From a virus (taxonomy: Duplodnaviria > Heunggongvirae > Uroviricota > Caudoviricetes): a DNA stretch of 64,000 nucleotides. Under the pieces are notes generated by a model. It did not search any database. It was given only the letters and a program-made list of their open reading frames with translations, and was not told the DNA's origin. Each line of letters begins with the position of its first letter. The first letter of the stretch is position 1. Of this stretch, positions 38,191-63,185 are shown piece by piece. The position numbers and the translations under genes are program-made. The DNA is taken from IMG/VR virus record IMGVR_UViG_3300008262_003982, one strand, 5' to 3'.

Positions 38191-39568
38191 CGTAATACTA
38201 GAAGCAGCGTCGCCTGCTCAACAGGCAGCCATTGCTATTGCTAAAAAGAAAAAGGCCGGCATGGTCAAAGAACAACAGCTTGATGAATTTGCGCCGTTGT
38301 TGGCAGCAGGTGCAAGACTGTTCATGGCTGCTGCCCCAAAAATAGCACAGGTTCTTGGCCAAGCAGGACAAGCAGGAGCTCGCGGTGCAGGTCAGGCTGC
38401 TCGAGCTGGCACAGAAATTGCAGCCAAGAATGCTGGAAAAATTGGCATGGGTGCTGGTGCTTACGAAATTGGATCTTCTGTGGCAGACATTGCCAAAGAT
38501 ATTGCTGCCAAGGTGGGCACGGCCATTGACGAGAAAACATTGCTTGACCTGTCTGCTTTGGCTTTTAAATATGCCATCCCTGCTGGCATTGTGTTGGCTG
38601 TGTTGTATGGCGGCAAAAAAGCCATAGACTCCTTGTTTGACGAGCCCAAAGATCAGCAAGGTGTGGCGGAAGGCAAAGCTGATTACAACTTTGATATTGA
38701 GGATCTAAAACGTCTTGAACAAATCAGAGACTTGTCCACGTTGAAAGCACAGGCACTGGCATTGATCAGCAAGCCCAGTGCCAAGCCAATGAAACCAGAA
38801 AAAGTTGAATGGTTTAAAAATGCCCTGGAAAGAATGAACAGCCCTTTAAAAGTAATCAAACTCATGTATGATTTGTTGCTGAGTGGCGAAGGTAATGCTG
38901 TAGTTGGTTCTAGATCGTCAATGAATCCCAACAGTTATCGTCAGCGATTTAGTGAGCAAGGTGTAGCGGAAGACTACAATGGCGAGTATGACGACGAAGC
39001 AGGCATGGCCGACAACAACTTAGAAACGCTACAACGTGCTGTAGAAGGTATTGACGATCTAATTCAATCAGGTGATAACTTGCCTGAATGGTGTCAAGAA
39101 AAGATTGCTGTGGCCAAGTCAATGCTGGTTGCTGTGTGGGACTATATGTATTCAGAGGAAGCGTCAGACGAAGTGGATCCCGAAGTGGATGAAATGTTTG
39201 AAGCCATGCAAGAGTTGGTAGCAGAAATGGCTGTGAAAAATCGTGTGAGCGAAGATCTAGTGTGGGAACAGTTTGAAGCCATGCCGGACAATGTGCTGTA
39301 TGAAACAGCCGCCTGGCGACGTAAAGAAGGCAAGAGCAAAAAAGGCGGATTAAACGCCAAAGGTGTGGCATCATATCGTAGAGAAAATCCTGGATCAAAA
39401 TTGCAAATGGCCGTGACCACCAAGCCTTCAAAACTAAAGAAAGGCTCTAAGGCAGCAAAAAGACGCAAATCATTCTGCGCCAGAATGTCAGGCGTTAAAG
39501 GCCCAATGAAAAAACCCAACGGCAAACCCACACGCAAGGCTCTAGCATTGAGAAAATGGAACTGCTGA
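38177..39568 (+). CDS. mosaic late protein, putative head-internal polyprotein, with basic C-terminal module
   Basis: Leader MKLNDVILE|A; two QGVAE linkers; C-terminal AAWRRKEGK..GGLNAKG..SFCARM module recalled from cyanomyophages. Confidence 0.8.
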   Translation: MKLNDVILEAASPAQQAAIAIAKKKKAGMVKEQQLDEFAPLLAAGARLFMAAAPKIAQVLGQAGQAGARGAGQAARAGTEIAAKNAGKIGMGAGAYEIGSSVADIAKDIAAKVGTAIDEKTLLDLSALAFKYAIPAGIVLAVLYGGKKAIDSLFDEPKDQQGVAEGKADYNFDIEDLKRLEQIRDLSTLKAQALALISKPSAKPMKPEKVEWFKNALERMNSPLKVIKLMYDLLLSGEGNAVVGSRSSMNPNSYRQRFSEQGVAEDYNGEYDDEAGMADNNLETLQRAVEGIDDLIQSGDNLPEWCQEKIAVAKSMLVAVWDYMYSEEASDEVDPEVDEMFEAMQELVAEMAVKNRVSEDLVWEQFEAMPDNVLYETAAWRRKEGKSKKGGLNAKGVASYRRENPGSKLQMAVTTKPSKLKKGSKAAKRRKSFCARMSGVKGPMKKPNGKPTRKALALRKWNC

Positions 39569-39569
39569 C

Positions 39570-39878
39570 ATGAAAAATCAACAGGATCAACAACTTGTTT
39601 CCAGTTTGATTATATTTGCAATTGTTGTGATGCTGATGTTGGCCATCACTGGGTGCAGCACTGTGGTGCCTGTTGTGGCCAAGTTTCCAGATGCACCCGG
39701 ACGATCAGCCATGGTGCCGTGCCCACAACTGGAACAGATTCCAGGTGAAGCTCGACTCAGTGACGTTGGTCGAACTGTGGTACAAAACTACACCACTTAC
39801 TATGCTTGTGCTGTGAAAGCAGATGCTTGGATTGAGTGGTACTCAGTACAGAAAAAAATATTTGAAGGTGCAAAATGA
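39570..39878 (+). CDS. putative outer-membrane spanin lipoprotein (Rz1-like)
   Basis: Lipobox ITG|C; Pro-rich FPDAP...PCPQL; adjacent to the endolysin. Confidence 0.65.
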   Translation: MKNQQDQQLVSSLIIFAIVVMLMLAITGCSTVVPVVAKFPDAPGRSAMVPCPQLEQIPGEARLSDVGRTVVQNYTTYYACAVKADAWIEWYSVQKKIFEGAK

Positions 39879-40489
39879 GCATACTATCCGTACAACAACT
39901 AAAACAAATGGTAAAGAATCCCCACATTGATCACTGGCACGAAGCCCTAGATCAACTGTTAGATGACTACGGCATTGACACACCCCTACGTGTGGCACAT
40001 TTTGTTGCACAATGCGCTCATGAGTCAGGAAATTTTATTTTCATCAAAGAAAATCTCAACTACAAAGCCGCAAGCCTACAAAAAGTTTTCCCCAAGTATT
40101 TCCCCACAGCTGAATTGGCTGCACAGTATGCCAACCGGCCTGAACGTATTGCCAACAGAGTCTATGCCAATAGAATGGGCAACGGCGACGAAGCATCAGG
40201 CGATGGCTGGCGCTATTGTGGTCGTGGGCTAATACAGTTGACAGGCAAGGACAACTACACATTCTTTGCAGGCAGCCTGAGTATTTCTGAAGCCGAAGCC
40301 GCAGAATATCTAGCCACTTTTGAAGGTGCCGCACAGTCAGCTTGTTGGTACTGGGAACAGAACAATCTAAATAGATTTGCAGATGCCAATGACGCAAAAG
40401 GTCTAACACGGGCCATCAACGGTGGCTACATTGGTCTTGAGGATCGCATCAAACACACTGAACATGCACTGCATGTGTTGGGAGCCTAA
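39875..40489 (+). CDS. endolysin, glycoside hydrolase family 19
   Basis: AHFVAQCAHESG.F...ENLNY, YCGRGLIQLTGKDNY and INGGYIGLEDR. Confidence 0.92.
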   Translation: MSILSVQQLKQMVKNPHIDHWHEALDQLLDDYGIDTPLRVAHFVAQCAHESGNFIFIKENLNYKAASLQKVFPKYFPTAELAAQYANRPERIANRVYANRMGNGDEASGDGWRYCGRGLIQLTGKDNYTFFAGSLSISEAEAAEYLATFEGAAQSACWYWEQNNLNRFADANDAKGLTRAINGGYIGLEDRIKHTEHALHVLGA

Positions 40490-40651
40490 ATGCCATTAGC
40501 AATTGGTGGGGGCATATCCATTGGTGGGGGCATAAGTGTTGCAGTTGCACCGCCCACACCTTCGGCCACATCCATTACCACAGAGTCGGATGATCCCATC
40601 ACAACAGAATTGGCAAACTCGCCGCCCAGCGACGAGATTATTACAGAATAA
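40490..40651 (+). CDS. small protein with IGxGIxIG leader and acidic tail (missed by ORF track)
   Basis: MPLAIGGGISIGGGISVAVAPPTPSATSITTESDDPITTE... Confidence 0.7.
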   Translation: MPLAIGGGISIGGGISVAVAPPTPSATSITTESDDPITTELANSPPSDEIITE

Positions 40652-40660
40652 GGAAAGCAC

Positions 40661-41407
40661 ATGCCCATTAAAATATCACAACTAACTTCACTAGCCGCAA
40701 TGACTGATGCAGCCATTGTGCCAGTGGTCAGCAGTGGAGTTACCTATCAAATTTCAGGCAGCAACTTGAAAACATATTTTTCTTCTGTGACCGGCAACAT
40801 CACAGGCGGCAACTTGAACACAGGCGGCTTGGTTACAGCCACAGGCAACGTGAACACAGCATCAGGCGTGTTGGCCACTGGCAATGTGCGTGGTGGCAAC
40901 GTAACGTCTGTGGCCCTGGTACAAGGCGCCACAGTGAGTGCCACAGGTAATGTACAAGCTGGCAACCTCAACACCACAGGATTGATTTCTGCTACAGGAA
41001 CCATCACATCTGGCGCTAATATCATTGGTAGTTTCTTTGTGGGCAATGGATCACAGTTGACTGGAATTTCAGGTGGAGTGGCATCACTCAGCGGCAACTT
41101 GTCCGGCAACCTAGTAGGTAATGGATTTGGAGCAGATGCATTTAGTTTTGTCAGCGTTACTGGCAACGTAACAGCCGCAAACTTTATAGGTGGCGGCGCA
41201 GGCACACCCACACTGAGTTCAGCCACAAACTTGGATCTGTCAGCTGTGTCAGCAGTTAGAGTAGTTGGCGGTGGCACGTTCCGACTGCCTAGTTTAACCA
41301 CAGCACAAATTGCCAACACAATTGCAGCCAATGGTGACATGATTTACAACTCATCTACTAACAAGTTTCAGGGTTACGAAAATGGTGCCTGGGCCAATTT
41401 AATTTAA
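40661..41407 (+). CDS. short tail-fibre-like protein with TGNITGGN repeats
   Basis: MPIKISQLT N-terminus; C-terminal GDMIYNSSTNKFQGY. Confidence 0.8.
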   Translation: MPIKISQLTSLAAMTDAAIVPVVSSGVTYQISGSNLKTYFSSVTGNITGGNLNTGGLVTATGNVNTASGVLATGNVRGGNVTSVALVQGATVSATGNVQAGNLNTTGLISATGTITSGANIIGSFFVGNGSQLTGISGGVASLSGNLSGNLVGNGFGADAFSFVSVTGNVTAANFIGGGAGTPTLSSATNLDLSAVSAVRVVGGGTFRLPSLTTAQIANTIAANGDMIYNSSTNKFQGYENGAWANLI

Positions 41408-41408
41408 T

Positions 41409-42956
41409 ATGACCACATATAACGTAGCATTAAATGAAGGTGTTGATTATGATGCTTTCTGGCAGGAAATAGAAACTGACGGATCAGGCAGCGTCTACGT
41501 GCCCCAACGCGGGGTGGCAATTGTGAATGAACGTCCCACCAGTCTACGCCAGTGTTGGTATGAGTTAACTGATGACGAAGCAGACAAACTGCGTCAAGAC
41601 CCCAGAGTGTATTGTGTGGAGATACCGCCTGAGCAACGAACAGATATTGAAATCCACAACAATGCCTCACAAACTGGCTTGTATTACAAAAGTCCCGGCA
41701 CCAATCCTGCCAACAATCTTGGAATCAATTGGGGGTTGTTTAGACTGAATTCAACCACAATGAACACTCCTGGTTCATCAGGTACATTGACCTACAACTA
41801 TCCCTTGGACGGCACTGGAGTAGACTTTGTGGTACAAGACTCAGGACTGCAAGTTGACCATCCTGAGTTTACGGATGCAGCTGGCGTGACTAGAGTACAA
41901 CAAATTGACTGGTACACAGCGTCAGGTATTGCAGGTACCATGCCTGCTAATTTCTACACCGACTATGACGGACATGGCACACACTGTTGTGGCATTGCCG
42001 CGGGCAAAACATACGGTCGTGCTAAAAATGCTAGAATTTACTGTATGACTGTGAGTGGACTCAACGTGGCACCCACCAATGGTATATCAACCACAGATGT
42101 GTTTGACTGCATCAAAGGGTGGCACAACAACAAAACTGTGGACCCCGCCACAGGATACAAACGACCCACAGTTGTAAACATGAGCTGGAGTTACATCAAC
42201 ACGTTCACCAGTATCAATGGTGGCATTTATCGTGGAACGCCCTGGAGTGGGTCTGCCAAACAAGCTACATTTGGTATGATTGGCAGTGCATCCAATCGCT
42301 TTGGTGTAAGAGTAGACAGTGTGGATGTGGATGTGGCCGAATTGCTGGCAGCAGGTGTGGTGTTAGTGGGCGCAGCCGGCAATTACTATCAAACTTTAGA
42401 TGTGCCAGGCGGCCCTGATTACGATAACTTTTTTTATCAAACAAGCACTCCTAGGTATTACATGCGCGGCGGATCACCGGCCAGTGCTGATGGAGTGATC
42501 TGTGTGGGCAACGTCAGCACTGGATATGACAATCCTGAACACAAAAGTGGCTCTAGTGAATCTGGGCCCAGGGTGGATATTTATGCACCTGGCACAAACA
42601 TTGTGAGTACCACCAGTACCAGCAATGCATTTGGTGCTACCACACCATATCCATTCAATGCCAGCTACTTGATAATGAGTATTTCAGGCACGTCAATGGC
42701 CAGTCCCAATGTCGCTGGCCTGGCTGCTCAACTGCTACAAGTTTACCCCACAGCTACCCCAGCACAGATACGAGCCAAGGTCATTGCTATGAGCACTCCC
42801 AACATGCTGTATGACACAGGATCGCAAACTGACTACAGCAATGAAGAAATTCTGCACGGTGGACCCAATAGATTTGCCTATCAGGCATTTAACACAACCA
42901 GCGGCGGCAACATAAGCGGCCCAGTGTCAGTAAGTAACACAAGCATGAGGACATGA
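41409..42956 (+). CDS. subtilisin-like serine protease (S8) with prodomain
   Basis: VDFVVQDSG (Asp), DGHGTHCCG (His), AAGN and SGTSMASPNVAG (Ser). Confidence 0.93.
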   Translation: MTTYNVALNEGVDYDAFWQEIETDGSGSVYVPQRGVAIVNERPTSLRQCWYELTDDEADKLRQDPRVYCVEIPPEQRTDIEIHNNASQTGLYYKSPGTNPANNLGINWGLFRLNSTTMNTPGSSGTLTYNYPLDGTGVDFVVQDSGLQVDHPEFTDAAGVTRVQQIDWYTASGIAGTMPANFYTDYDGHGTHCCGIAAGKTYGRAKNARIYCMTVSGLNVAPTNGISTTDVFDCIKGWHNNKTVDPATGYKRPTVVNMSWSYINTFTSINGGIYRGTPWSGSAKQATFGMIGSASNRFGVRVDSVDVDVAELLAAGVVLVGAAGNYYQTLDVPGGPDYDNFFYQTSTPRYYMRGGSPASADGVICVGNVSTGYDNPEHKSGSSESGPRVDIYAPGTNIVSTTSTSNAFGATTPYPFNASYLIMSISGTSMASPNVAGLAAQLLQVYPTATPAQIRAKVIAMSTPNMLYDTGSQTDYSNEEILHGGPNRFAYQAFNTTSGGNISGPVSVSNTSMRT

Positions 42957-42957
42957 T

Positions 42958-43686
42958 ATGCCAATAGTAATAGGACCCGGAATTGAAATAGGACCAGGAG
43001 TCACTGCTGGTGGTGGGTTTGCGCCAACAGTGAGTTTGATTTATGATTTAGATGCAGCCAATTACTCAGCTGTGCCCACCAACGGATCAGTCACAGAAGG
43101 AACAGGTACCACAGGAGAACGCACACTAACAGTGGCCAATGCAGGCGGCAGTATTAGCTGGCAAGCTGACAATGGTGGGTTGTTCAGAAAATCTAACGCC
43201 ACTGGAACTGACAGTATCCGCGGCGGTCCCAACTGGAGTACTGGTCAGAGTTATTCAGTGTTTGCAACCTACAAGTTGTCGGTCACAAGTTCTGGTAGAT
43301 TGTTAAACACACAAAGTGAAGCCACTAGAGACTGGATGATGGGTGCCTACAATGGTTTTGTAAATGCATTCTATCCCAACTATGCAGTTAACTTGCCCAG
43401 CTCAGGAACAAATGCTGTGTGGAACTTTATATGGGGTACTTGGAACGCCAGCACCGGCCTAGGCCAAGTGTACACAGCAACAAGTGCTCAACCAACTACC
43501 ACTTCTTTTACAGCCACTAATCTAGGCAGCGGCGGCGGCCCCAATCAAATAAGATTATTCAGTCGTTCAGCAGGCACCGAAGTGCAAACTGGCGACATAG
43601 GATTTGTCAAGGCCTACAACGGAATATTAACGCTGGGAGACGTACAAGGTTTGTACGCTCAATACAAAACAAGATTTGGATATTAA
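42958..43686 (+). CDS. ConA/LamG-like lectin-fold virion protein with IGPGIEIG leader
   Basis: YDLDAANY...YSVFATY...GFVKAYNGILT.GDV..LY. Confidence 0.75.
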   Translation: MPIVIGPGIEIGPGVTAGGGFAPTVSLIYDLDAANYSAVPTNGSVTEGTGTTGERTLTVANAGGSISWQADNGGLFRKSNATGTDSIRGGPNWSTGQSYSVFATYKLSVTSSGRLLNTQSEATRDWMMGAYNGFVNAFYPNYAVNLPSSGTNAVWNFIWGTWNASTGLGQVYTATSAQPTTTSFTATNLGSGGGPNQIRLFSRSAGTEVQTGDIGFVKAYNGILTLGDVQGLYAQYKTRFGY

Positions 43687-43689
43687 TAT

Positions 43690-44004
43690 ATGGCAATGAT
43701 AATAGGTTCAGGTATTACTTTAGGCACAGGTCTTCAACTAACCAGCGGAGCCGCACCACCTCCGCCTCCATTGGTCATTCCCACCAGCGATACAGGTGGG
43801 GTAACAGGGTGGAATCCTCAAGCCGCAGGAATACCATACAGTGCCACAGTGATTGCCACATATCCAGTGGGTAGTACAATCACTTTTCAGGACAGCACCA
43901 CAGCAACTATTACGCAGTGGGATGACTATGGTCCTACTTACATTGACATTTTTTGGGATACGCCTAAGGTTGGCACAATATTCCCAATCACACTATCAAC
44001 TTAA
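43690..44004 (+). CDS. small virion-type protein with IGSGITLG leader
   Basis: ORF in the structural run. Confidence 0.7.
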   Translation: MAMIIGSGITLGTGLQLTSGAAPPPPPLVIPTSDTGGVTGWNPQAAGIPYSATVIATYPVGSTITFQDSTTATITQWDDYGPTYIDIFWDTPKVGTIFPITLST

Positions 44005-44016
44005 TAAGGAAACAAC

Positions 44017-44553
44017 ATGACAACAAAAATGTCAGAATCAGAAAAGAAAAAAGAAGACTGGATGAACTCAAAATGGCGGCCCATGATGGGTTGGTCATAC
44101 ATGCTGACCTGCATTGCAGATTTTGTGATATTTCCAGTGTTGTGGTCTATACTACAAAGCCTTTCAAAAGGTCAAGTCAACGTGCAGTGGCAACCTATCA
44201 CCTTGCAAGGTGCAGGCCTGTATCACATTGCCATGGGTGCTGTGCTGGGTATTGCGGCTTATGGTCGCACACAAGAAAAACTAGGAGGAGCCAACAATGG
44301 CGGAATCAACTTACCATCAAATGTCGGTACAACATATACGCCTCCGGGATCAGTACAACAGCCAGCCGCACCCGGTGGTTTTGGTGCACCAACCACAAAC
44401 ACCTGGGGCTCACAACCCCTGGGAGGCGGAAGCGCATTTGGAGGCGCACCTGCAACAGGCTTTGGAGCACCAGCGGCTGGATTTACTGAAGTAACCATTG
44501 GGTTTGGTGGTAAAAAAGCTCCGCCAGCCATAACTGACTATCCAGAACGATAA
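44017..44553 (+). CDS. putative holin (GTA 3TM-holin-like) with FG-rich tail
   Basis: WMNSKWRPMMGW...AMGAVLGIAAYGRTQEKL. Confidence 0.7.
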   Translation: MTTKMSESEKKKEDWMNSKWRPMMGWSYMLTCIADFVIFPVLWSILQSLSKGQVNVQWQPITLQGAGLYHIAMGAVLGIAAYGRTQEKLGGANNGGINLPSNVGTTYTPPGSVQQPAAPGGFGAPTTNTWGSQPLGGGSAFGGAPATGFGAPAAGFTEVTIGFGGKKAPPAITDYPER

Positions 44554-44574
44554 TAACTAAAAAGGAAAATCAAA

Positions 44575-44781
44575 ATGAAAAATATTATATTTGTAGCAGG
44601 ATTAATTCTTAGTTTGCCAGCAATTGCTGACGAAGCCAAAGAAACCAAACGAGTCTGCGTTGACGTAAAGAAAGACGGCAAGGAAGTAAAAGATCCCAAA
44701 ACAGGCAAGACCAAGCAAAGCTGTAAAGAAGTCAAACAGCACAAAAAACTAGATGGCACCAAAGTGCCGGAGAAAAAGTAA
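44575..44781 (+). CDS. small secreted protein
   Basis: Signal peptide MKNIIFVAGLILSLPAIA; two Cys; Lys-rich. Confidence 0.75.
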   Translation: MKNIIFVAGLILSLPAIADEAKETKRVCVDVKKDGKEVKDPKTGKTKQSCKEVKQHKKLDGTKVPEKK

Positions 44782-44858
44782 TGGAATGGTTATTGTTTGT
44801 TGTGGTGGCTGCTGGCATTGGCTGGTGGTGCTGGGACTACTACAATAAGTTTCGTTAA
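44781..44858 (+). CDS. 25-aa single-TM peptide
   Basis: MEWLLFVVVAAGIGWWCWDYYNKFR; TAATG overlap with the upstream stop. Confidence 0.45.
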   Translation: MEWLLFVVVAAGIGWWCWDYYNKFR

Positions 44859-44859
44859 T

Positions 44860-44888
44860 TTGACAACCAGTACCGGGCCCTGTATAAT
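44860..44888 (+). promoter_or_regulatory. sigma70 promoter for dnaJ
   Basis: TTGACA-17-TATAAT. Confidence 0.8.
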
Positions 44889-44908
44889 TAAACATACAGG
44901 GCCTTTTT
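44876..44908 (+). terminator. rho-independent terminator overlapping the dnaJ promoter -10
   Basis: Perfect 10-bp stem GGCCCTGTAT/ATACAGGGCC followed by TTTTT. Confidence 0.7.
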
Positions 44909-44909
44909 C

Positions 44910-45686
44910 ATGACCGATCACTATGCAACACTAGGTGTTGCTCGAACTGCCACACAAGACGAAATCAAACGAGCTTTCCGTCGGCTGGCCAGCCAGCATC
45001 ATCCGGACAAGGGCGGCGATACAGCCAAGTTCCAAGAGATACAAGCAGCCTACGACACTCTAGGCGACGAAGCCAAACGAGCTGAGTACAACAATCCACG
45101 CCCACAGTTTGGGGGATTCCCCAACGGCACACACTTCAACATGAATGATATTTTTTCAAGCATGTTTGGACAGAACTTTGCGCAACAGCAAGCTCGTAGA
45201 GGTCATGTGAGAATGAGTCTCTGGATCAGTCTTGCTGACGTTGCAACTGGTGGACAGCGCACAGTGACCATTGGTACACAGCAAGGTGCCCAAGCAGTTG
45301 AAATTGAAGTACCGCGTGGCATTGACGACGGAGACAATGTGCAATACCAAGGCCTGGGCCCAGGTGGCGCAGATCTAGTGGTGCAGTATCGAGTGCAACC
45401 AGATCCAAACTGGGAACGGCAAGGACTAAACTTGATTACCAATCGCAAAATCAATGTGTTTGATTTGATATTGGGTGCGGACATTCGAGTTAGAGATTTG
45501 CTAGGCAATGAATTGTCTATGACTGTGCCGTCGGGCACTCAACCGGGCACACTGCTAAGACTCAAAGGTCGTGGTCTGCCCAATCGTCAAGGTCAGCAGG
45601 GCGATGCGTTTGTTCGCATATCAACCGAATTGCCCATACACATTGCCCCAGAAATTCGTGAAGCTATCCAAAAGCATCACAAATAA
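44910..45686 (+). CDS. dnaJ: DnaJ/CbpA-like co-chaperone (no Zn finger)
   Basis: J domain with HPD, G/F region and C-terminal domain (GTQPGT.LRLKGRG). Confidence 0.92.
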   Translation: MTDHYATLGVARTATQDEIKRAFRRLASQHHPDKGGDTAKFQEIQAAYDTLGDEAKRAEYNNPRPQFGGFPNGTHFNMNDIFSSMFGQNFAQQQARRGHVRMSLWISLADVATGGQRTVTIGTQQGAQAVEIEVPRGIDDGDNVQYQGLGPGGADLVVQYRVQPDPNWERQGLNLITNRKINVFDLILGADIRVRDLLGNELSMTVPSGTQPGTLLRLKGRGLPNRQGQQGDAFVRISTELPIHIAPEIREAIQKHHK

Positions 45687-45698
45687 ATATTTTGAGTA

Positions 45699-45727
45699 TT
45701 GCATTACTCACAACAATGTGCTACAAT
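45699..45727 (+). promoter_or_regulatory. sigma70-like promoter for clpA
   Basis: TTGCAT-17-TACAAT with TG extension. Confidence 0.6.
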
Positions 45728-45749
45728 ACACAAGGTAACAACTTAACTC

Positions 45750-48717: not shown

Positions 48718-48727
48718 ATAACACACT

Positions 48728-48892
48728 ATGGCAAAAATACATGAAGAAATAGTTGTGATCAAACTATCAAAATTGGTCAAAGACGATGCAACAGCAGAAG
48801 CAATTGCCACTGATGACATTGTGGCAGCCCTGCAATCAGTTGCAGAAGAACTAGCCGGCAGCGGTGTTGTTGTGGAAGCTGATCGCGCATAA
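48728..48892 (+). CDS. small late protein (missed by ORF track)
   Basis: MAKIHEEIVVIKLSKLVKD...; TAAATA 7 nt upstream; TAATG overlap with the next gene. Confidence 0.7.
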   Translation: MAKIHEEIVVIKLSKLVKDDATAEAIATDDIVAALQSVAEELAGSGVVVEADRA

Positions 48893-49254: not shown

Positions 49255-49262
49255 GGAAATCC

Positions 49263-49703: not shown

Positions 49704-49719
49704 GCACTAAATACAGTGT

Positions 49720-50436: not shown

Positions 50437-50492
50437 AAATTTTGCCTTGGCTGTATAATCCGTAAATACTACACTTTTTTACGGAGATCTAA

Positions 50493-51353
50493 ATGGCAGA
50501 GCCACAACAAGTTCAAATTCAAGTCGACCTTGAATATCTAAAAACCACTCGTGTTCACATCTGTATGCCCTGTTATGGGGGCCAGCTGACAGAAGCAACA
50601 TTCATGAGTTTTATCAAATGGGGCAATACCTGCCGACAACTAGGCATTGATTGGACTGTAGAAACCATGACTAATGAAAGTTTGATTAGTCGTGCTAGAA
50701 ACACTCTGACTGCAAAGTTTTTGAATACAGAAGGTTCAACACACTTGATGTTTATTGACGCGGACATTGGCTGGGAACCCTGGCATTTGTTGGTGTTGCT
50801 AAATCGCCAAGTGGATGTGATTGGTGGATTGTATCCCATGAAATCACTGCCAGTTAAATGGTGTGTGAATGGCATTCCAGGTCAAGAAGAAGGCGTGGAC
50901 AACTTGGTAGAAGTTACCAAGACTGGCACAGGATTCTTGTTGATCAAGAAAGATGTGTTTGACAAACTGAATGCACACCCTGCTGTGCGTCATTTCAACA
51001 ATGACATTGGTCTAGATCCTGCGCTGGACAAGTACATGAAAACCTACTTTGACACTGCTGTGCGTGAAAACCGCTACTATTCAGAAGACTGGACATTCTG
51101 CGAAAACTGGCGTGATCTAGGCGGCAAAGTGTATATCGACAAACGTGTGTTGTTGAAACACGTGGGCACCTATGTGTTTGATGCGCAAACACAGGACAAG
51201 TTGTACCAAGACTTGCATGCTATTGCTGCTCCTAAGATTGCCAATGCACATGATGCAGCCAAGCAACCAGTTGATATAACTGAGCCTGAAATCATGGCAT
51301 CCAGCACCCCTGTGGATGTTGTGCCCGTGGAAGAACCAGCTACAGCCAAGTAA
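50493..51353 (+). CDS. GT-A-fold glycosyltransferase-like protein
   Basis: CMPCYGG, SLISRARN, HLMFIDADIGW (DxD), GTGFLLI and SEDWTFC. Confidence 0.78.
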   Translation: MAEPQQVQIQVDLEYLKTTRVHICMPCYGGQLTEATFMSFIKWGNTCRQLGIDWTVETMTNESLISRARNTLTAKFLNTEGSTHLMFIDADIGWEPWHLLVLLNRQVDVIGGLYPMKSLPVKWCVNGIPGQEEGVDNLVEVTKTGTGFLLIKKDVFDKLNAHPAVRHFNNDIGLDPALDKYMKTYFDTAVRENRYYSEDWTFCENWRDLGGKVYIDKRVLLKHVGTYVFDAQTQDKLYQDLHAIAAPKIANAHDAAKQPVDITEPEIMASSTPVDVVPVEEPATAK

Positions 51354-51370
51354 CGGTAAATACAGTTCGT

Positions 51371-54300
51371 ATGAACATCAACGAACTGGATTCCTTCAAG
51401 CTGAGTGATGCTGTAAAGTTTCACAATCGTCTCAACCCTAAAATCTGGGGCAGGGACGAGCAATTGTTACCCGAAGTACGCGAAAAGCTGTTGGCCATTG
51501 CTGACAATTTTCGCGAATTTCTTGGCGTAGGTGACCTTGACGTCCGTGACATAACCATCTCAGGCAGTAATGCTGCCTACAGCTATACCCCATATTCCGA
51601 CATTGATCTACACCTTGTGGTGGAGTTTCCTGCTGACGACGAAGTTTATCAGGAACTGTTCAATGCCAAAAAATACCAATATAACGATGAACACAAGTTG
51701 AGCATCGGCGGCGTGCCTGTGGAACTGTATGTGCAAAATGCAGCCGAGTCTCCTGTGAGTCAAGGTGAGTATTCTATCCCACGTGACGAATGGATTCAAG
51801 TGCCACGCAGAAAACGTGCCAGAATTGACGACACCTGTGTGCGAGCCAAGGTCGAAGATTTGGATGCTAGAATACATTCAGCAATTGAATCTGGCAACGC
51901 TGAATCCATGAGCAGACTGTGGGACAAGATCAAGGCCATGCGCCAAAGTGGCTTGGATGCTCACGGCGAGTTTGGGTGTGAAAACATTGTGTTCAAAATC
52001 CTGCGTAACAAAGGTTGCATCAAGGATTTGCGCACAGCTAGAACAGCCGCACAAGATCACGAGCTGAGTCTACAAGAACGCCGAAAAAAGAAATCCCGAG
52101 TGCGTTATGGATTTGGCAGCTATTGGTCTCCTGGATTTGGCTACGGAGGAGAATCAGGCGAAGGTGGTGACGGTGGTGGTGGCGAAAGCATGCGCGAAGG
52201 CCATCAAGGACAACCCTACAGTTCAGAAGATGGTGTTGCTGCCAGCACACAAATGTTCTTGAATGAAGATGACACTGAGAGCATGGTGCAACAGTTTATT
52301 CAAGACACTGCTGAACGCTTGGGCATTGAACGCATGCCTGAAATTGTACTACATGACAATGACGGATGGAGTGAACAAAATCGTTCATTTGGCATGTACC
52401 AACCAGAGCTGCATGTTTTGCATGTGAATCTGCGCGATCGACATGTGATGGATATTCTTCGCACTGTGGCACACGAACTGGCACACTGCCGCCAACAGGA
52501 ATTAGAACAATTGGATCACACATCTGGCAACACAGGCTCTCCTGTGGAGAACGAAGCAAACGCTGTGGCTGGCATTATCATGCGAGACTTTGCTGATGCA
52601 CACCCAGAACTGTTTGACCATGAAGACATTCGTGAGTCATCTGGATACATTCCCACCTGGGCCGAACGCAACGATCCTCGATTTGAAATGGCACTGAGTG
52701 TGGATGTGCATCCAGGACAAACTGGCACAGAAGCCAACAAGATGCGACTGGCCACTGATTCGCAAGGCCATCCACAACTGTTGCGAGCAGATGGCAAGGT
52801 AAAGTTAGCAGAAAGTCTAGCACAAGAATTTGAACTGTTTGAAGAACAAGACCTGTTTGAAATAAACATGGGCAGCAAAAATTTGCGCAGGGAAGCTGCC
52901 AAAACAGGTGCCATTGCTGGCATGGAATTTGAAATGATTGTGCCTGGTATGGAATCCGAAGATCCTGAAATGGAACCAGACTATGATCAGGATGAACGCT
53001 GTGTTAGCATTGATGATGCTGTGCGATTCTTTCATGATGGCGACTACAACGGCCGTAGAGATGTTGAACGCCTGCGTGAAAGAATGCAGGACGATTTCCA
53101 GGAATGGCTGGATGAAAAACTTCGCGATGACTGGGGCGGTGAAAGCCAAGATTACATTCGTGACTGGCTTCGGAATAATGTAAATGAAGATGAATGGAAT
53201 CCTAACGAGTTAACTGGTGATGAACGAAACGAAGCATTTGATGAATTTGCAGCCAATGTAGACGCTGATCCTTCGAGTACTTACTACAATGAAGCCTTTG
53301 ATGAATGGCGGGAAGAATTCCAAGAAAATTATGACGAAAGCGACTGGTTAGACGCCACAGACCTTGACAGAATGAGTGAGGTTGAGCAAATGTATGGAAT
53401 GAATTGGCCCTACTGGACTAGCATGAACAGCGGCGAGATTGACGCAGATCAAGTGGCTGACGAATTCAGTCAGGCTGTGGGTCGTGAAGTGCGAGTGAAC
53501 ACAAGATATCATCAGTCCGGCGACAGACCTGGACCCAACAATCAATTCTATGTAGTAGAACCAGACGCCAGTTTGGAAGGCGACAATGACGGCGACGAAG
53601 GCTTGGAGTTTGTGAGCCCGCCCATGCCCATAGATGAACTGCTGAAAGATTTAAATGCCGTGAAGGCCTGGGCTGGACGCATGGGCGTTTATACCAACAG
53701 TTCGACTGGCCTGCACATCAACATATCAGTGCCTGACTACAGTTTAGATCGTTTGGACTATGTAAAACTGGCCTTGCTGTTGGGCGACGAGTATGTGCTC
53801 AAACAATTTGGTCGCAGTTCCAATACCTACACCAAATCAGCACTAGGCAAGGTGCGTGATCGTGTGCGGTCCAACCCCGAAGACGCACAGCGTTTGCTGG
53901 ACAAGATGAAAGGTCAAATGGGTGAACTGGCTTCCAAGGCCATCCATTCAGGCAGCACAGACAAGTACACATCAATCAACACCAAGAGCGGACACATTGA
54001 ATTCCGTTCGCCGGGTGGTGACTGGCTGGATGACAACTTTGACAAGATTGAAAACACTCTGTTGCGTTTCACAGTGGCCATGAGTGCAGCACTTAACCCT
54101 GAAGCCTATCGAGAAGAGTATCAAAAGAAACTATACAAACTGTTGACTCAGGATCAAAAAGGGTCAGACACAATCCGATACTTTGCTGACTATGTGGCTG
54201 GCAAGATTCCCAAGGCTGCCTTGCGTAGTTTTGTCAAGCAAGCACAACTACAACGCAAGACGGAGCGTAATAAAACAAGCGGTGAAAAGATGTGGTGGAA

Positions 54301-55540
54301 CGTTTCCAATCCTGGCAATAGTTATGCCAGTGTAGAAGTTGTTGCCACCTCTCGAGAAGAAGCCATTGAAAAAGCCTTGGGGGATGATGGCTATCCGTCT
54401 TGGGCCAACACACGACAATCTATTGTGGCTGAACCTGTGCGTCCGTATAATTTGGATGCACAATCTACACAAGACGACGACACAGCTAGTGCCTTTACTG
54501 CACCGCCAGGTTCTCAAGGTGGTGGCCGCCCCAATGACCCCAACGGTCGCTATGCCATTGTGCTACGCTCGGATCCAGGCCTGTATGGCAGTTTTACTGG
54601 CCCAGCACCTGACTATCAGTTTAGATTTAACATGGGCAATCCAGCGGAACAGGCACAAGGCAGATATGTTCTCCAAGCCTGGGCTGCTAGAAACAATGTG
54701 GTTGCTGCTGACTACATGGTGGTGGATACTGAACAATGGGATCGGCCTGCAGATGCAGCATCGGGTGGTATCATTGACATTGAACCAGATATAGAGGTGG
54801 TCTACCCTGGAAGCACAGCAGCCTTGGCACAACAGCGAGCCACGCCAGGCACATTCTCTGGTGCATGGAAGGTGTTGGTCAATGGTGAAGAAGTTCATAG
54901 ATTTTCAGGCGTGGGCAACAATCAAGGCGATGCTAACCGTGTAGCGGCTCAATGGTTGCGAAACAATGGTCGGGGAGTGTCAGGCGAAGGCTTTGAAGTT
55001 GTGCCAATCATGACAGAAGGTGTAGCCGAAGGCAAGGATCGCTACGGAAACTTTGATCCTCCTGGTCCTGAAAGCCGACCCACAATGCCAGCGGGCACTG
55101 TGCGAGTGGATGTGTCAGACATGTATGACTGGTACAAGTTGGGCAAGAACATTGCTAACTTAGACAGAGATAACACTGACGATTTTGGCAAAGGACCACC
55201 CAGTACTATTGTGAGTTTTGGCGACGAAGATCTTGAACATGAATACATCAAGCAGTTGGAAAAACTAGGGTTAACCACCACTGACATTGATCCTGTAGAT
55301 CCCAATCAACCTGCTGGCATCAAGCGTCAAAAAACTGATCCCACATACAACGTAGGTGAAAACTTTGCTGACGGTCGGAATCCCCAAGACAAAGGCGATT
55401 CAAAGCGACACGGCGTGCCCACCAAAGCATCAGTAAGCACCCTGCGTAAAGTGGCCAAACAAGGCGGTCGCAAAGGACAATTGGCACACTGGATGGCCAA
55501 CATGAAGGCTGGACGGGCTCGAGCCAAACGCAATAAATAA
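51371..55540 (+). CDS. 1389-aa multidomain protein: Pol-beta-type nucleotidyltransferase, HExxH zincin, amidoligase (GCS-like) and small modules
   Basis: ISGSN...SDIDLH..PVELY; TVAHELAH; GMEFEM...DASL...LEFVSP...STGLHINI...KY.SIN...IEFRSPG. Confidence 0.82.
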   Translation: MNINELDSFKLSDAVKFHNRLNPKIWGRDEQLLPEVREKLLAIADNFREFLGVGDLDVRDITISGSNAAYSYTPYSDIDLHLVVEFPADDEVYQELFNAKKYQYNDEHKLSIGGVPVELYVQNAAESPVSQGEYSIPRDEWIQVPRRKRARIDDTCVRAKVEDLDARIHSAIESGNAESMSRLWDKIKAMRQSGLDAHGEFGCENIVFKILRNKGCIKDLRTARTAAQDHELSLQERRKKKSRVRYGFGSYWSPGFGYGGESGEGGDGGGGESMREGHQGQPYSSEDGVAASTQMFLNEDDTESMVQQFIQDTAERLGIERMPEIVLHDNDGWSEQNRSFGMYQPELHVLHVNLRDRHVMDILRTVAHELAHCRQQELEQLDHTSGNTGSPVENEANAVAGIIMRDFADAHPELFDHEDIRESSGYIPTWAERNDPRFEMALSVDVHPGQTGTEANKMRLATDSQGHPQLLRADGKVKLAESLAQEFELFEEQDLFEINMGSKNLRREAAKTGAIAGMEFEMIVPGMESEDPEMEPDYDQDERCVSIDDAVRFFHDGDYNGRRDVERLRERMQDDFQEWLDEKLRDDWGGESQDYIRDWLRNNVNEDEWNPNELTGDERNEAFDEFAANVDADPSSTYYNEAFDEWREEFQENYDESDWLDATDLDRMSEVEQMYGMNWPYWTSMNSGEIDADQVADEFSQAVGREVRVNTRYHQSGDRPGPNNQFYVVEPDASLEGDNDGDEGLEFVSPPMPIDELLKDLNAVKAWAGRMGVYTNSSTGLHINISVPDYSLDRLDYVKLALLLGDEYVLKQFGRSSNTYTKSALGKVRDRVRSNPEDAQRLLDKMKGQMGELASKAIHSGSTDKYTSINTKSGHIEFRSPGGDWLDDNFDKIENTLLRFTVAMSAALNPEAYREEYQKKLYKLLTQDQKGSDTIRYFADYVAGKIPKAALRSFVKQAQLQRKTERNKTSGEKMWWNVSNPGNSYASVEVVATSREEAIEKALGDDGYPSWANTRQSIVAEPVRPYNLDAQSTQDDDTASAFTAPPGSQGGGRPNDPNGRYAIVLRSDPGLYGSFTGPAPDYQFRFNMGNPAEQAQGRYVLQAWAARNNVVAADYMVVDTEQWDRPADAASGGIIDIEPDIEVVYPGSTAALAQQRATPGTFSGAWKVLVNGEEVHRFSGVGNNQGDANRVAAQWLRNNGRGVSGEGFEVVPIMTEGVAEGKDRYGNFDPPGPESRPTMPAGTVRVDVSDMYDWYKLGKNIANLDRDNTDDFGKGPPSTIVSFGDEDLEHEYIKQLEKLGLTTTDIDPVDPNQPAGIKRQKTDPTYNVGENFADGRNPQDKGDSKRHGVPTKASVSTLRKVAKQGGRKGQLAHWMANMKAGRARAKRNK

Positions 55541-55546
55541 CCCATC

Positions 55547-55900
55547 ATGAGATATAAAGAAATTCTTGAAGCCTGCTGGACTGGTTATCGCCAAGCAGGC
55601 ATGAAAAACAAAGGTGGTCGTCAGGTGCCCAATTGTGTGCCTGTGAGCGAAACCGAGTTGGAAGAAAATCTCCGTGATTGGTTCAAAGACAAGTGGGTAC
55701 GCTTTGGGCCCGACGGCAAGATCCGTGGTGATTGTGCTAGAGGCAGTTCAAAAGAAGGCAAGCCCAAGTGTTTGCCGCAAGCCAAAGCACATGCCCTGGG
55801 CAAAAAAGGTCGTGCGTCAGCAGCCGCAAGAAAACGCAGACAAGATCCCAACCCCAACCGCACAGGAAAGGCCATCAACGTGGCCACTAAAAAGAAATGA
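55547..55900 (+). CDS. two-module basic late protein
   Basis: MRYKEILE|ACWTGYRQ.GMK.KGGRQVPNCVP; ELEE|NLRDWFKDKWV...PKC. Confidence 0.8.
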   Translation: MRYKEILEACWTGYRQAGMKNKGGRQVPNCVPVSETELEENLRDWFKDKWVRFGPDGKIRGDCARGSSKEGKPKCLPQAKAHALGKKGRASAAARKRRQDPNPNRTGKAINVATKKK

Positions 55901-57732
55901 TTATAGACGACTTATTTGAAGCCTCACAGTCATGCCCACACTGTGGTGGTCCCATGTTCAGTGAAATGCTGATGATGGAAAAGAAAGACGCCTGCTACTA
56001 CAAAGTAAAAGCGTCAGCAAAAGTATGGCCATCAGCCTATGCATCTGGACGCTTGGTTCAGTGTCGCAAAAAAGGCGCTGGCAATTATGGCAACAAGTCT
56101 GAAGGTGTGATGGAAATGGACAAATCACAAACACCTCCAGGGCGTGATGGTAGTAACGATGAAGGCGGCAAAAAAGAATACACTGCTAAAGCAACCACTG
56201 CTAAAAAAGTAGCCAAGGATGCTGAAAAGATTCTAAACAAAGAGTTAAACAAGAAGCAAGGTGTGGCGGAAGCAACTGGCGATCAAAAGTTTGACTCAAT
56301 GATGGGTCAGATCACAGGTGGTGCTACTGCTAGGCAAAGTGTAGATAGTTTGAATAAGTCTCTCACTGCAAGAACAGGCAGCGACCCAGAAACAGCATTG
56401 GCCAAATGGGGCCAGGAATTTATAAATTGGCTTGAAAAAATTTGCCGCAACTTTGAAAGGCAAGGTGTAGATAGGTTTAATAAATTAGAAAAAGTAGGTA
56501 ATCTTGACGACGGTGGCGAAACTATGGCGCACTGGTTGATTGAGGTCGCCAAACAATCCAATACCTCAGGCATTACACAGGCTGACATACAGGAATTTTC
56601 TAGCGAGTTTAATACCCACGGAATGTGGGCTTGGCATCAGTTTCCTATAGCTTGGGGTCTAAAAGAATGGCAAGACTATAAAGATCAATGGACTGGCCCT
56701 GATGGTTACATAGCCAATCTAGGACAAGGCATGGCGGAAGGCTCGGAGTCAGATGCTTACGGTAACACTGGTGAAAAGCATGAATGTGGTTCTTGCGATG
56801 GCACTGGAATAGATACACACGATGATGAGTGCCCAGAATGCGGTGGCAAAGGCTGGGTGAGAAATAAGGAAGCATTGAAGAAGAAAGGCATGGCGGAAGA
56901 GTATGAACTAGCAGGTGTTGGCGTAGCATACGAACTGGGTCGTCGAGCATACAAACAAGGTATGACCATCAGAGACAATCCATATAGTGCCACAAGAGAA
57001 GCCCGTAAAAATGACGAATGGGCCAAAGGATTAGAACGCGGCAAACACGATGCAAATGATGCCAGACATTTCCGCAGTAGTGTAAGAGAACAAGGTGTAG
57101 CGGAAGGTGATCTTGACGAAGGCTGGAAAGAAAAATTAGGTGGCGCGGCATTGGCAGGTGCAATGGCACTGGGCGCAGGTGGTGCCAATGCTAGAGTTAC
57201 TCCTGATGGCCAAGGCGGTTTCACTGGCGGATTCAAGCCAAGTGCAACAATGACATCACCTGCTGATAATAAACCGGCTGCAGAAGCACCAAAAGGCTTT
57301 AGCAAAGAATATTTACAAAGTGTAATAGACGGCAAGCACCCAAGACCAATGGTTAGTGTTGAAAAAGCAAAAGAACTATTAAAGAACATGCAAGAAGGTG
57401 ACTTGAATGAAAAGTCAACCAGCCAAGCACAATTCCGCACCATGGCAGCAGCCGCACACAATCCTGAATTTGCAAAAAAAGTTGGCATCAGCCAAGACGT
57501 TGCTCAAGAGTTCCACGGTGCTGATCGCAAGCAGGACTATGCAGACTTGCCTAAAAAGGCTGACGAAAGCAAATCAACTCCCAAAGAAAAAGAAGCCGAC
57601 TACGGTGATGATTATCAAGACATGATTGCTAGAGTAAAGAAACTGGCTGGCTTGGGCCCACTTAAAACTGTGTATGATCCCCAAAAGCGTGTGTATCGCA
57701 ACATGCCCACAGCGGTGCAACCTAAAAAATGA
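55897..57732 (+). CDS. mosaic late protein with multiple GVAE/GMAE-linked modules
   Basis: MIIDDLFE|A leader; QGVAE x2, QGMAE, KGMAE and EGVME linkers. Confidence 0.8.
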   Translation: MIIDDLFEASQSCPHCGGPMFSEMLMMEKKDACYYKVKASAKVWPSAYASGRLVQCRKKGAGNYGNKSEGVMEMDKSQTPPGRDGSNDEGGKKEYTAKATTAKKVAKDAEKILNKELNKKQGVAEATGDQKFDSMMGQITGGATARQSVDSLNKSLTARTGSDPETALAKWGQEFINWLEKICRNFERQGVDRFNKLEKVGNLDDGGETMAHWLIEVAKQSNTSGITQADIQEFSSEFNTHGMWAWHQFPIAWGLKEWQDYKDQWTGPDGYIANLGQGMAEGSESDAYGNTGEKHECGSCDGTGIDTHDDECPECGGKGWVRNKEALKKKGMAEEYELAGVGVAYELGRRAYKQGMTIRDNPYSATREARKNDEWAKGLERGKHDANDARHFRSSVREQGVAEGDLDEGWKEKLGGAALAGAMALGAGGANARVTPDGQGGFTGGFKPSATMTSPADNKPAAEAPKGFSKEYLQSVIDGKHPRPMVSVEKAKELLKNMQEGDLNEKSTSQAQFRTMAAAAHNPEFAKKVGISQDVAQEFHGADRKQDYADLPKKADESKSTPKEKEADYGDDYQDMIARVKKLAGLGPLKTVYDPQKRVYRNMPTAVQPKK

Positions 57733-63148: not shown

Positions 63149-63152
63149 GCAA

Positions 63153-63180: not shown

Positions 63181-63185
63181 TCTTT

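Follow-up and report, generated by a model that had tools for sequence, protein, structure and literature searches.

A linker conserved at silent sites marks points of module exchange in multi-module proteins of uncultured T4-like lake phages

An uncultured T4-like lake phage and its relatives carry a short in-frame repeat that encodes a linker, Q-G-V-A-E or a close variant of it, between unrelated protein modules. The repeat is conserved at silent sites in excess of codon use, and modules are exchanged between phages with breakpoints inside this DNA word. We consider it rather probable that the genes concerned encode capsid-targeted cargo polyproteins, that the head protease cuts these at the linker, and that the DNA word acts as a joint of short homology where modules are exchanged in frame.

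Results

The repeat and the genes that carry it

The window, by which we mean the whole stretch of 64,000 nucleotides that was analysed, was searched for the 16-nt core of the repeat with up to three mismatches. Eight matches were obtained, compared to 0.49 expected from shuffled sequences, and none of 100 shuffles reached eight. Seven of the matches had been listed in a first-pass annotation, with positions, sequences and GCG count as we find them (Table 1), and the repeat is real. All seven are in frame and encode QGVAE (four copies), QGMAE, KGMAE and EGVAE, which corresponds to the pattern [QKE]-G-[VM]-A-E; the codon that follows each core begins with G and specifies G, A, D or E. The eighth match, at 21929, encodes QGVTE with 3 mismatches within a tail-fibre-like protein and appears to be fortuitous.

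The Ala of the linker is encoded by GCG in six of seven copies (binomial P = 1.3e-6). This is the rarest Ala codon of the window, with a share of 7.6-8.6% among 1705-1828 Ala codons. None of the 13 [VM]AE tripeptides found outside linkers uses GCG, and codon-pair bias is therefore ruled out as the cause.

Table 1. Linker-bearing genes of the window, neighbouring putative cargo genes, and the linkers. A slash marks the predicted point of cleavage; L numbers are our handles for other records.
Feature	Coordinates	Strand	Remarks
Putative cargo polyprotein gene, 463 aa	38177..39568	+	Leader MKLNDVILE/A; three modules; C-terminal DUF6321 (E = 1e-21)
Linker 1 of the 38177 gene, QGVAE/G	38657..38672	+	Exact DNA word
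Linker 2 of the 38177 gene, QGVAE/D	38957..38972	+	GTA variant; 86%-identical L068 module begins there
1389-aa polyvalent-type protein gene	51371..55540	+	Nucleotidyltransferase (weak), HExxH zincin, Amidoligase_2, C-terminal NFADG module
Linker in the 1389-aa gene, EGVAE/G	55016..55031	+	Ala = GCC, sole non-GCG copy; L138/L139 similarity stops there
Putative single-module cargo gene, 117 aa	55547..55900	+	Leader MRYKEILE/A; stop overlaps start of next gene
Putative cargo polyprotein gene, 611 aa	55897..57732	+	Leader MIIDDLFE/A; at least 5 modules
Decayed linker EGVMEM, aa 70-75 of the 611-aa protein	56104..56121	+	L139 similarity stops there
Linker QGVAE/A	56257..56272	+	Exact word; 85-89%-identical modules in at least 10 contigs begin there
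Linker QGMAE/G	56725..56740	+	End of modules that begin at the 56257 linker
Linker KGMAE/E	56884..56899	+	Left edge of 69-aa module, 92-96% identical in L138, L142, L143
Linker QGVAE/G	57091..57106	+	GTA variant; right edge of 69-aa module begun at 56884
Putative cargo gene, 118 aa	57729..58085	+	Starts MRAYEF..KEGAVE/D: leader + degenerate linker

The cores had been described as one array running from 38657 to 57107. Instead, they are distributed over three separate late-type genes, with 2, 1 and 4 copies, and about 12 kb of other genes, including those for an endolysin, a subtilase, DnaJ and ClpB, separates the linker-bearing genes. The accompanying statement that sequences between copies share no similarity was borne out: all-vs-all blastp revealed nothing significant among the window modules (best E = 0.04), and the 611-aa and 463-aa proteins each consist of a series of unrelated modules. 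An AlphaFold2 model of the 611-aa protein, built from the single sequence, had a mean pLDDT of 38 and is therefore uninformative on domain borders.

The ATG at 38177 is preceded by GGAGG 10 nt and by TATAAAT 27 nt upstream; we prefer it as the start of the 463-aa gene, the listed GTG at 38156 probably not being the true one. In the 1389-aa protein Amidoligase_2 scored above cut-off, and NTP_transf_2 reached the cut-off when its segment was scanned alone. In L112 and L075 the first module of the 55897 gene occurs internally, behind a linker. The position of the decayed linker reads EGVAEG or EGVAED in L139 and L142. At the position of the 57729 gene, L138 and L149 have a gene whose start, MRAQEFTQGVAE/G, is followed by another module.

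The linker is conserved as a DNA word

In IMG/VR the exact 16-mer is present in at least 119 stretches, in 169 copies that essentially always encode QGVAE in frame and have unrelated flanks. A second set of loci was fetched from relatives by means of peptide patterns that did not include the linker. The exact word was found at 41 of the 65 QGVAE sites of this set (63%), a share that codon use would put at about 0.9%. Of these sites, 56 have GCG (background 8%), 58 have GGT and 64 have CAA. The linker consensus is Lys or Glu, then Q-G-V-A-E, then G, A, D or E, with a corresponding word RAG CAA GGT GTG GCG GAA GGC of about 20 nt. Leader peptides of the same genes show ordinary silent-site variation. 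Thus, the in-frame repeat is conserved at silent sites in excess, in the window and in relatives alike, and the DNA-level conservation proposed by the first-pass annotation is upheld.

The silent sites could be fixed for a reason of RNA or translation, for instance to make ribosomes pause at the rare GCG or at a Shine-Dalgarno-like AAGGTG so that each module could fold. The rarity of GCG and the G-richness of the word are what one would then expect, but the word contains just one rare codon. Of the Gly codons, GGA does not occur in the linker, although it would bring the word much closer to a Shine-Dalgarno sequence (AAGGAG), and GGC is depleted; the absence of GGA disfavours a Shine-Dalgarno-like pause. 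RNA structure is absent as well: neither a hairpin nor an inverted repeat was detected at or around the word at any of the seven sites, alone or together with 20-nt flanks (z from -1.0 to +1.25). Finally, sub-words of the motif, which might have revealed a Chi-like or other signal, show neither strong enrichment nor strand bias outside linkers. We regard an explanation of this kind as highly improbable.

The linker could also be a peptide signal only, a cut site or flexible joint, its DNA identity being a by-product of descent from one founder, spread recently along with modules through recombination of whatever kind, and selection for functional in-frame fusions alone setting the breakpoints at domain borders. 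In line with this, GAA at the fifth linker codon is used close to background frequency (85% compared to 81%), and linkers with variant residues (E or K at P5, M at P3) retain GCG less often, in about 48% of cases, as drift would give. Against it, the word is unchanged in at least 119 contigs beside unrelated modules that number in the hundreds, while common modules have diverged by 4-15%, and silent sites of the leader drift freely within the same genes. The pattern of module exchange, described below, bears on the same question.

Modules are exchanged with breakpoints inside the word

Comparison of 93 distinct linker sites revealed 91 pairs with one common flank and only 1 pair in which both flanks are common. 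Nucleotide identity drops from about 0.9 to about 0.27 across linker codons -1 to +5. Modules of the window that are 85-96% identical in other contigs have their edges within a few bases of linkers, and no match among them spans a linker. Each junction contains exactly one clean linker, without scars or duplications. We conclude that modules are exchanged with breakpoints inside the word; relatives differ by whole modules with breakpoints at the repeat, as previously suggested.

Exchange is not confined to the word. Some module boundaries use other hydrophobic-x-Glu junctions instead of the 16-mer, and leader and linker contexts exchange modules as well, although they have no DNA identity in common; the word is therefore not the sole route of exchange. 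Both observations speak for the peptide-signal-only reading. One clean linker per junction, on the other hand, is what crossing-over in the word predicts, unlike random joining, and we consider the reading unlikely.

Precise junctions and a sharply bounded word of about 20 nt would also be expected of a dedicated site-specific recombinase acting on the repeat, as in integrons. The first-pass annotation had called the repeats an integron-like array, a description that we abandon: there is no single array beside an attI-type site, the copies being spread over three genes; scanning of about 50 ORFs of the window revealed no integrase or recombinase; and the word lacks an attC-like hairpin or inverted repeat. 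Such a system is very doubtful indeed.

The arrangement of the window over 38000-57900 is bridged without differences by contigs from three of the four lake runs compared, and an assembly chimera is therefore excluded for it. In contigs of the four runs neither a clean linker-to-linker deletion nor a circle joint was found, contigs being unable to reveal rare variants; low-depth joints to other phages near 38951/38972 were observed and nothing else.

Leaders and stand-alone homologues

The start M-x-x-x-[DEQ]-[LFIVM]-[LFIVMYT] is present in 65 of 125 linker ORFs (52%) compared to 245 of 1802 other ORFs (14%; odds ratio 6.9, P = 3e-22). Judged by their sequences, leaders of linker genes, for example MKTYQFITE and MRAQEFITE, resemble the capsid-targeting sequence (CTS) of T4, MKTYQEFIAE, which is removed by gp21 (PMC8442874; PMC5694885), and they end in hydrophobic-x-Glu. 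Late-promoter-like sequences TATAAAT or ATAAATA were found upstream of 20% of linker ORFs and 11% of others (P = 0.005).

Post-linker modules also have stand-alone homologues (n = 118), whose N-terminal extensions peak at 9 aa. The residue aligned to the linker Glu is Glu in 39 of 67 cases (background 5%), and P3 is hydrophobic in 61%. The same modules are found behind leader-E or linker-E. Two PHROGs that match one module carry the label virion structural protein, a weak hint of presence in the virion, but gp383, a homologue in 201phi2-1, does not carry a virion-protein annotation.

Were the motif left uncleaved, as a docking site or flexible hinge for scaffold binding or for the chaperones DnaJ/ClpB, the polyproteins would act intact. 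DnaJ and ClpB genes do adjoin linker genes, and polyvalent proteins of the N4 vRNAP type are packaged uncut (PMC5512222). However, a 9-aa leader of removable type on stand-alone homologues, with its Glu aligned to the linker Glu, is hard to explain by a hinge, which makes this alternative very unlikely.

Candidate proteases

Relatives of the source phage have genomes of about 350 kb (contigs of 320-350 kb) and a clamp loader 73-79% identical to that of the window. No near-identical DNA was found among cultured relatives in INPHARED; overlap with T4-like cyanophages, pelagiphages and jumbo phages is restricted to single domains. Peptidase_S77 (gp21), a Gp23 capsid protein and a T4 portal were detected in relatives G002, G003 and G005 and in 8 of 20 fragments. 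The gp21 protease of T4 requires Glu at P1 and a hydrophobic residue at P3. Propeptide junctions of the relatives' capsid proteins, LLAE/S and YLKE/N, are of the same hydrophobic-x-Glu type, and V-A-E or M-A-E of the linker is compatible with the rule. Since the capsid-protein sites do not require Q-G at P5-P4, the protease rule alone is insufficient for the full motif. No gp21, gp23 or portal gene was detectable in G001, a linker-bearing contig rated 99% complete; as the three genes form one block in G003, G001 may simply be without that block. The 50 smaller word-bearing contigs are rated as 2-25% fragments of genomes of the 350-kb size, and an HK97-type capsid gene was found in 0 of 50.

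The linker might instead be cut by another protease, either the neighbouring zincin (M78/MPTase-like) or a phage subtilase, before packaging or after injection. Of 25 related records, 19 contain the HExxH zincin part of the 1389-aa protein, among them all four that are near-complete, and in each case linker loci lie no more than a few kb away; autoprocessing by such domains was predicted by Iyer et al. 2017 (PMC5512222). The presence of linkers in G001 would fit as well, and a subtilase is encoded at 41409-42956. However, the co-occurrence of the zincin is inflated because the contigs were selected for linkers, and its Peptidase_M78 match is weak (E = 0.004, below cut-off). The subtilase is missing from near-complete relatives G003 and G005, and we rejected it as a universal linker protease. 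In addition, the relatives' capsid-protein sites conform to the gp21 rule of Glu at P1 and a hydrophobic residue at P3, and the linker is interchangeable with a T4-CTS-like leader. Cutting by another protease thus appears unlikely. The first-pass annotation had assigned the repeat a role as a protease site, which is plausible and to which CTS-like leaders, the equivalence of leader and linker, and the gp21-type protease of relatives lend indirect support.

Discussion

In the reading that we favour, that of capsid-targeted cargo polyproteins, a CTS-like N-terminal leader would carry each polyprotein into the prohead, where the gp21-type prohead protease would cut the leader and every linker behind their Glu. 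Several small proteins would be freed in this way and kept in the head, probably to be injected along with the DNA. The word of about 20 nt would be an identity patch common to all such genes, and recombination within it would swap, add or remove whole modules with frame and cut site intact. We infer cleavage, the identity of the protease, and packaging and injection of the cargo from sequence comparison; we likewise infer the recombination mechanism and its role in holding the DNA word constant.

A stronger form of this reading can be put forward tentatively, though we do not quite lean towards it: the word would be dual-coded, selected both as a cut site of the head protease and as a dedicated in-frame recombination joint, giving giant lake phages a "protein-cassette" system that reshuffles injected small proteins. 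In that case a phage nuclease or recombination protein possibly recognises the word.

A literature search returned no paper describing the linker system; "QGVAE" retrieved alpha-synuclein papers only and "DUF6321" no paper. If the favoured reading is true, one leader brings many unrelated small proteins into the capsid and the head protease frees them, while the same sequence, as DNA, lets phages trade proteins as in-frame cassettes. Such a sequence would correspond, within coding regions, to the intergenic shuffling signals of T4-type phages, and would be a concrete, testable case of sequence selected for evolvability. Linker and leader together flag hundreds of candidate injected proteins in uncultured giant phages, which are likely host-takeover or anti-defence factors, and suggest a natural design for multi-protein loading of T4-type capsids.

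Comparison with known systems

Like integron cassettes, the modules are exchangeable units bounded by a recurring recombination site. Unlike integrons, the system has no IntI among the ORFs scanned, no structured attC and no attI/Pc platform, and its units are coding segments joined in frame in one ORF.

Polyproteins of RNA viruses have repeated protease sites, e.g. Q/G for 3C proteases, and fixed, essential sets of modules. The lake-phage proteins are similar in that one translation product with a repeated short motif, here a predicted cut site, would give rise to several proteins. The starts of the modules suggest, however, a cut after Glu rather than at Q/G, and no 3C-type protease was seen. 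RNA-virus polyproteins are not known to keep their cleavage sites as fixed DNA or RNA words at which modules are exchanged.

Polyvalent proteins, found in phages and conjugative elements, are multi-domain mosaics for which packaging in the capsid has been predicted; a zincin MPTase, which they often contain, has been proposed to free the domains (Iyer et al. 2017, PMC5512222). The 1389-aa protein, with its nucleotidyltransferase, HExxH zincin and amidoligase, fits the description of 2-15 unrelated effector-type domains in one polypeptide. Many modules of the lake phages are small domains of unknown function, in contrast to the catalogued effector domains of polyvalent proteins. The word "linker" has zero occurrences in the text of Iyer et al. 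2017 (PMC5512222), which thus describes no conserved linker between domains and no conservation at the level of DNA.

In T4-type phages, PeSL (promoter-early stem-loop) cassettes undergo modular shuffling and form mini-circles (Arbiol et al. 2010, PMC2839356). As in the lake phages, a short conserved sequence flanks variable ORFs and is the site of module exchange, gain and loss. A PeSL occupies about 100 bp between genes and combines an early promoter with a stem-loop terminator, flanking ORFans, whereas the word described here is about 20 nt, intra-ORF, stem-loop-free and also a peptide signal; circles have been demonstrated for PeSLs, whereas contigs of the four lake runs contained no circle joint. 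The likeness is one of way of working, not of membership. Homologous recombination of the T4 type has been reported with less than 50 bp of identity (cited in PMC2839356). The linker word, with its 16-20 nt, falls near the bottom of this reported range.

Internal proteins IPI-III and Alt of T4 carry the CTS, which is cut off by the prohead protease gp21, and IP loci of T-even phages encode diverse injected anti-defence proteins that have the leader alone in common. The lake phages share with them CTS-like leaders, a predicted cut after Glu with hydrophobic P3, a gp21-type protease and gp23 in relatives, and highly variable cargo behind one common signal. Unlike T4, where each cargo gene is single and one N-terminal cut is made, several modules are here combined in an ORF with the signal repeated internally, and silent sites are fixed in this internal signal but not in the leader.

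The linker is carried by three separate genes

All seven copies of the QGVAE-encoding core described in the first-pass annotation were present as quoted, on the plus strand and in frame. A search of the window for the core with up to three mismatches gave eight matches against 0.49 expected, a count that no shuffle reached. The peptides of the seven copies are QGVAE (four times), QGMAE, KGMAE and EGVAE, and the next codon always begins with G. The eighth match encodes QGVTE with three mismatches and lies in a seemingly folded region of a 1539-aa tail-fibre-like protein; it is probably due to chance and not a linker.

The preference for GCG as the Ala codon was confirmed: six of the seven copies use it, compared to 7.6-8.6% of Ala codons in the window (P = 1.3e-6). 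Codon-pair bias is ruled out, since none of the 13 other [VM]AE tripeptides of the window contains GCG. No significant similarity was detected among the modules that separate the copies, again as originally noted. The copies do not form a single array, however, but are split over three genes separated by genes for an endolysin, a subtilase, DnaJ, a ClpB-type ATPase and others.

The subtilase, DnaJ and ClpA/ClpB-type ATPase genes make up a protein-handling row (41409-48032); the ATPase is ~39% identical to counterparts in jumbo phages PA5oct and Phosso.

Linker-bearing genes and other features of the window
Feature	Coordinates	Linker copies	Remarks
Auxiliary metabolic genes	4165-5037, 30410-31567, 33656-34570, 62102-63205		NAD synthetase and three radical-SAM-domain proteins
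Superoxide-dismutase-like protein	11794-12342
Eighth core match	21929-21944		probably chance
463-aa gene	38177-39568	two	true start is ATG 38177, GGAGG 10 nt upstream
Subtilase	41409-42956		Peptidase_S8
DnaJ	44910-45686		full DnaJ
ClpA/ClpB-type ATPase	45750-48032		double AAA
1389-aa gene	51371-55540	one
611-aa gene	55897-57732	four

Modules are exchanged at the linker

The first-pass annotation had predicted that related genes would differ by whole modules, with breakpoints at the repeat. Comparison of 93 distinct linker sites revealed 91 pairs in which only one flank is homologous, against one pair in which both are. In the one-flank pairs nucleotide identity falls from ~0.9 to ~0.27 across linker codons -1 to +5. 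The 56257-56725 module of the window is 85-89% identical in more than 10 contigs and the 56884-57091 module is 92-96% identical in three related loci (L138, L142 and L143); for further matched modules, the start lies at 38957 or the end at 55016. All of these matches have their edges no more than a few bases from a linker, and not one of them spans a linker. Whole-module differences were found as well, with genes of five loci (L135, L136, L139, L142 and L143) having the first and last modules of the 611-aa gene and different inner modules. An extra breakpoint at residue 73 of the 611-aa protein coincides with a decayed linker, EGVMEM, which is EGVAEG or EGVAED in relatives. The conserved word is not found at every module boundary, some of which are other hydrophobic-x-Glu junctions. 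We conclude that the role of the linker as a shuffling joint is well supported. Membership among integrons fails on recombinase, with none found among about 50 ORFs scanned in the window, as well as on attC structure and array layout.

Two kinds of empty slots were observed among relatives (L036, L055, L087, L138 3873 and L149 247). In one, the linker is followed by 2-7 residues and a stop codon, with proteins ending in QGVAEDN or QGVAEGKK; in the other, the leader runs directly into the linker (MRAQEFTQGVAEG...). Both are the expected outcome of linker-to-linker deletions.

The linker is conserved as DNA beyond its peptide

A scan of viral contigs for the exact 16-mer gave at least 169 copies in at least 119 stretches, essentially always as an in-frame QGVAE with unrelated flanks. 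Because this sample was chosen by the word itself and is therefore biased, a second sample of 112 loci was retrieved with peptide patterns chosen so as to leave out the linker. In this second sample, CAAGGTGT[GA]GCGGAA was present at 41 of 65 distinct QGVAE sites, compared to ~0.9% expected from the product of background codon frequencies; CAA was used at 64, GGT at 58 and GCG at 56 of the 65 sites. The frequency of GAA in the linker was not above background. A logo of 66 non-redundant sites lengthened the word to RAG CAA GGT GTG GCG GAA GGC, the silent position 5' of CAA being G in 73% of sites.

Identity of the word at the DNA level could reflect mere shared ancestry of the sites. This explanation is weakened by the leader of the same genes, which served as a control: conserved as a peptide, it varies freely at silent sites, whereas the linker is fixed. 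The junctions, in addition, are clean and contain one linker each. No RNA fold was detected at linker sites, and sub-words of the word showed no Chi-like behaviour elsewhere in the window. A Shine-Dalgarno-type reading fits poorly, with GGA at zero use.

Leader and linker may be processed by the same protease

An N-terminal leader matching M-[KRN]-[ILAF]-x-[DEQ]-[LFI]-[FIL]-x-E was found in 65 of 125 linker ORFs and in 245 of 1802 other ORFs (P = 3e-22). These leaders resemble the T4 capsid-targeting sequence (CTS), MKTYQEFIAE, which the prohead protease gp21 cuts off after packaging (PMC8442874, PMC5694885). Stand-alone homologues of post-linker modules (n = 118) have N-terminal extensions with a sharp peak at 9 residues. 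In 39 of 67 cases a Glu aligns with the linker Glu (background 5%), and P3 is hydrophobic in 61%.

The same modules occur behind either element. The module (E/G/K)WSQKYKSSINCS is a separate gene behind MRAKEFITE and follows QGVAE within polyproteins. The first module of the 611-aa protein (MIIDDLFE/ASQSCPHCGG, the slash marking the junction) is internal, behind QGVAE, in L112 and L075. The NFADG module, which lies at the C-terminus of the 1389-aa protein, is preceded by a leader in L033 and L162 and by QGVAE or GMAE in L018 and L205. On this evidence the leader Glu and the linker Glu are interchangeable, as expected if both were removed by a cut after Glu.

Capsid proteins of relatives contain the junctions LLAE/S and YLKE/N, at a position equivalent to the gp23 maturation site of T4. 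A hydrophobic-x-Glu rule fits these junctions as well as V-A-E and M-A-E. Additional weak hints come from late-promoter-like TATAAAT/ATAAATA motifs upstream (20% of linker ORFs versus 11% of others) and from the PHROG label "virion structural protein" on one module. Thus far, the linker is a plausible but unproven cleavage site.

The Glu specificity and CTS-like leaders point to gp21 as the candidate protease. Cleavage by another enzyme, such as the HExxH zincin of the neighbouring polyvalent-type 1389-aa protein or the subtilase, appears less likely: in 19 of the 25 records the zincin (a weak M78 match) does occur together with linker loci, and zincin-type domains were proposed as processing enzymes by Iyer et al. 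(PMC5512222), but the Glu specificity and the leaders favour gp21, and the subtilase is absent from two near-complete relatives.

In related loci, a second hydrophobic-x-Glu within six residues past the linker was observed in 13.6% of 331 distinct linkers and at 6.8% of random positions. Such doubled junctions, for example QGVAEGSLNE, QGVAEEQLDE and the fourth linker of the 611-aa gene (QGVAEGDLDE), could represent either double cut sites or what is left of a leader. The superoxide-dismutase-like protein of the window has a leader like that of the cargo genes (N-terminus .../AS) and may be another packaged protein.

The phage of the window and its relatives with large genomes

The window encodes tail fibres, a T4-type clamp loader, radical-SAM enzymes and an endolysin; no near match was found among cultured phages. 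IMG/VR contigs of 320-350 kb have clamp loaders that share 73-79% identity with that of the window. Of four such contigs tested, G002 and G003 also have genes for a prohead protease of the gp21 family and for a gp23 capsid protein. In G003 a gp21 homologue is the ORF at 43112-43741 and a T4 portal was confirmed; the same protease and capsid genes were present in 8 of 20 further fragments. Fifty smaller contigs with the 16-mer were rated 2-25% fragments of genomes of the 320-350 kb size, and none of them contained an HK97-type capsid gene. In G001, a related contig rated 99% complete, linkers were found and gp21, gp23 and portal were not detected. These three genes form one block in G003, and the block may simply be missing from the G001 contig.

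In G005 (IMG/VR, 524,565 bp) a linker pair at 176505/176886 recurs at 524058/524439 with equal 381-nt spacing, 347,553 bp away, so this contig, listed as "524 kb, 100% complete", is probably about 1.5 copies of a ~347.5 kb genome.

The phage was recovered at near identity from about 20 lake and freshwater runs of 14 studies. In three runs, contigs that span the linker-bearing genes show no difference at all, and the window arrangement is therefore not an assembly artefact.

Comparison with known systems

In cyanophage Syn33, the protein Syn33_105 (L249 1615-2979; T4-like gene cluster 119, adjoining gp16) is a fusion of KVWPSAYASG, CW.GY and DUF6321 domains, which are separate modules in the window. 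Its inner junction, ...SEG-MTYQEFQE-KCWKGY, looks like a fossil CTS-type leader kept within the fused protein.

We found no literature account of a cut signal that recurs within proteins, is at the same time constant as a DNA word and marks in-frame exchange points. Separate features of the linker system recall known ones: the leader and putative gp21 processing recall T4 internal proteins, many effectors per chain recall polyvalent proteins, and exchange at short conserved sequences recalls PeSL-type modular shuffling (PMC2839356). By analogy, the linker system would work like these three combined.
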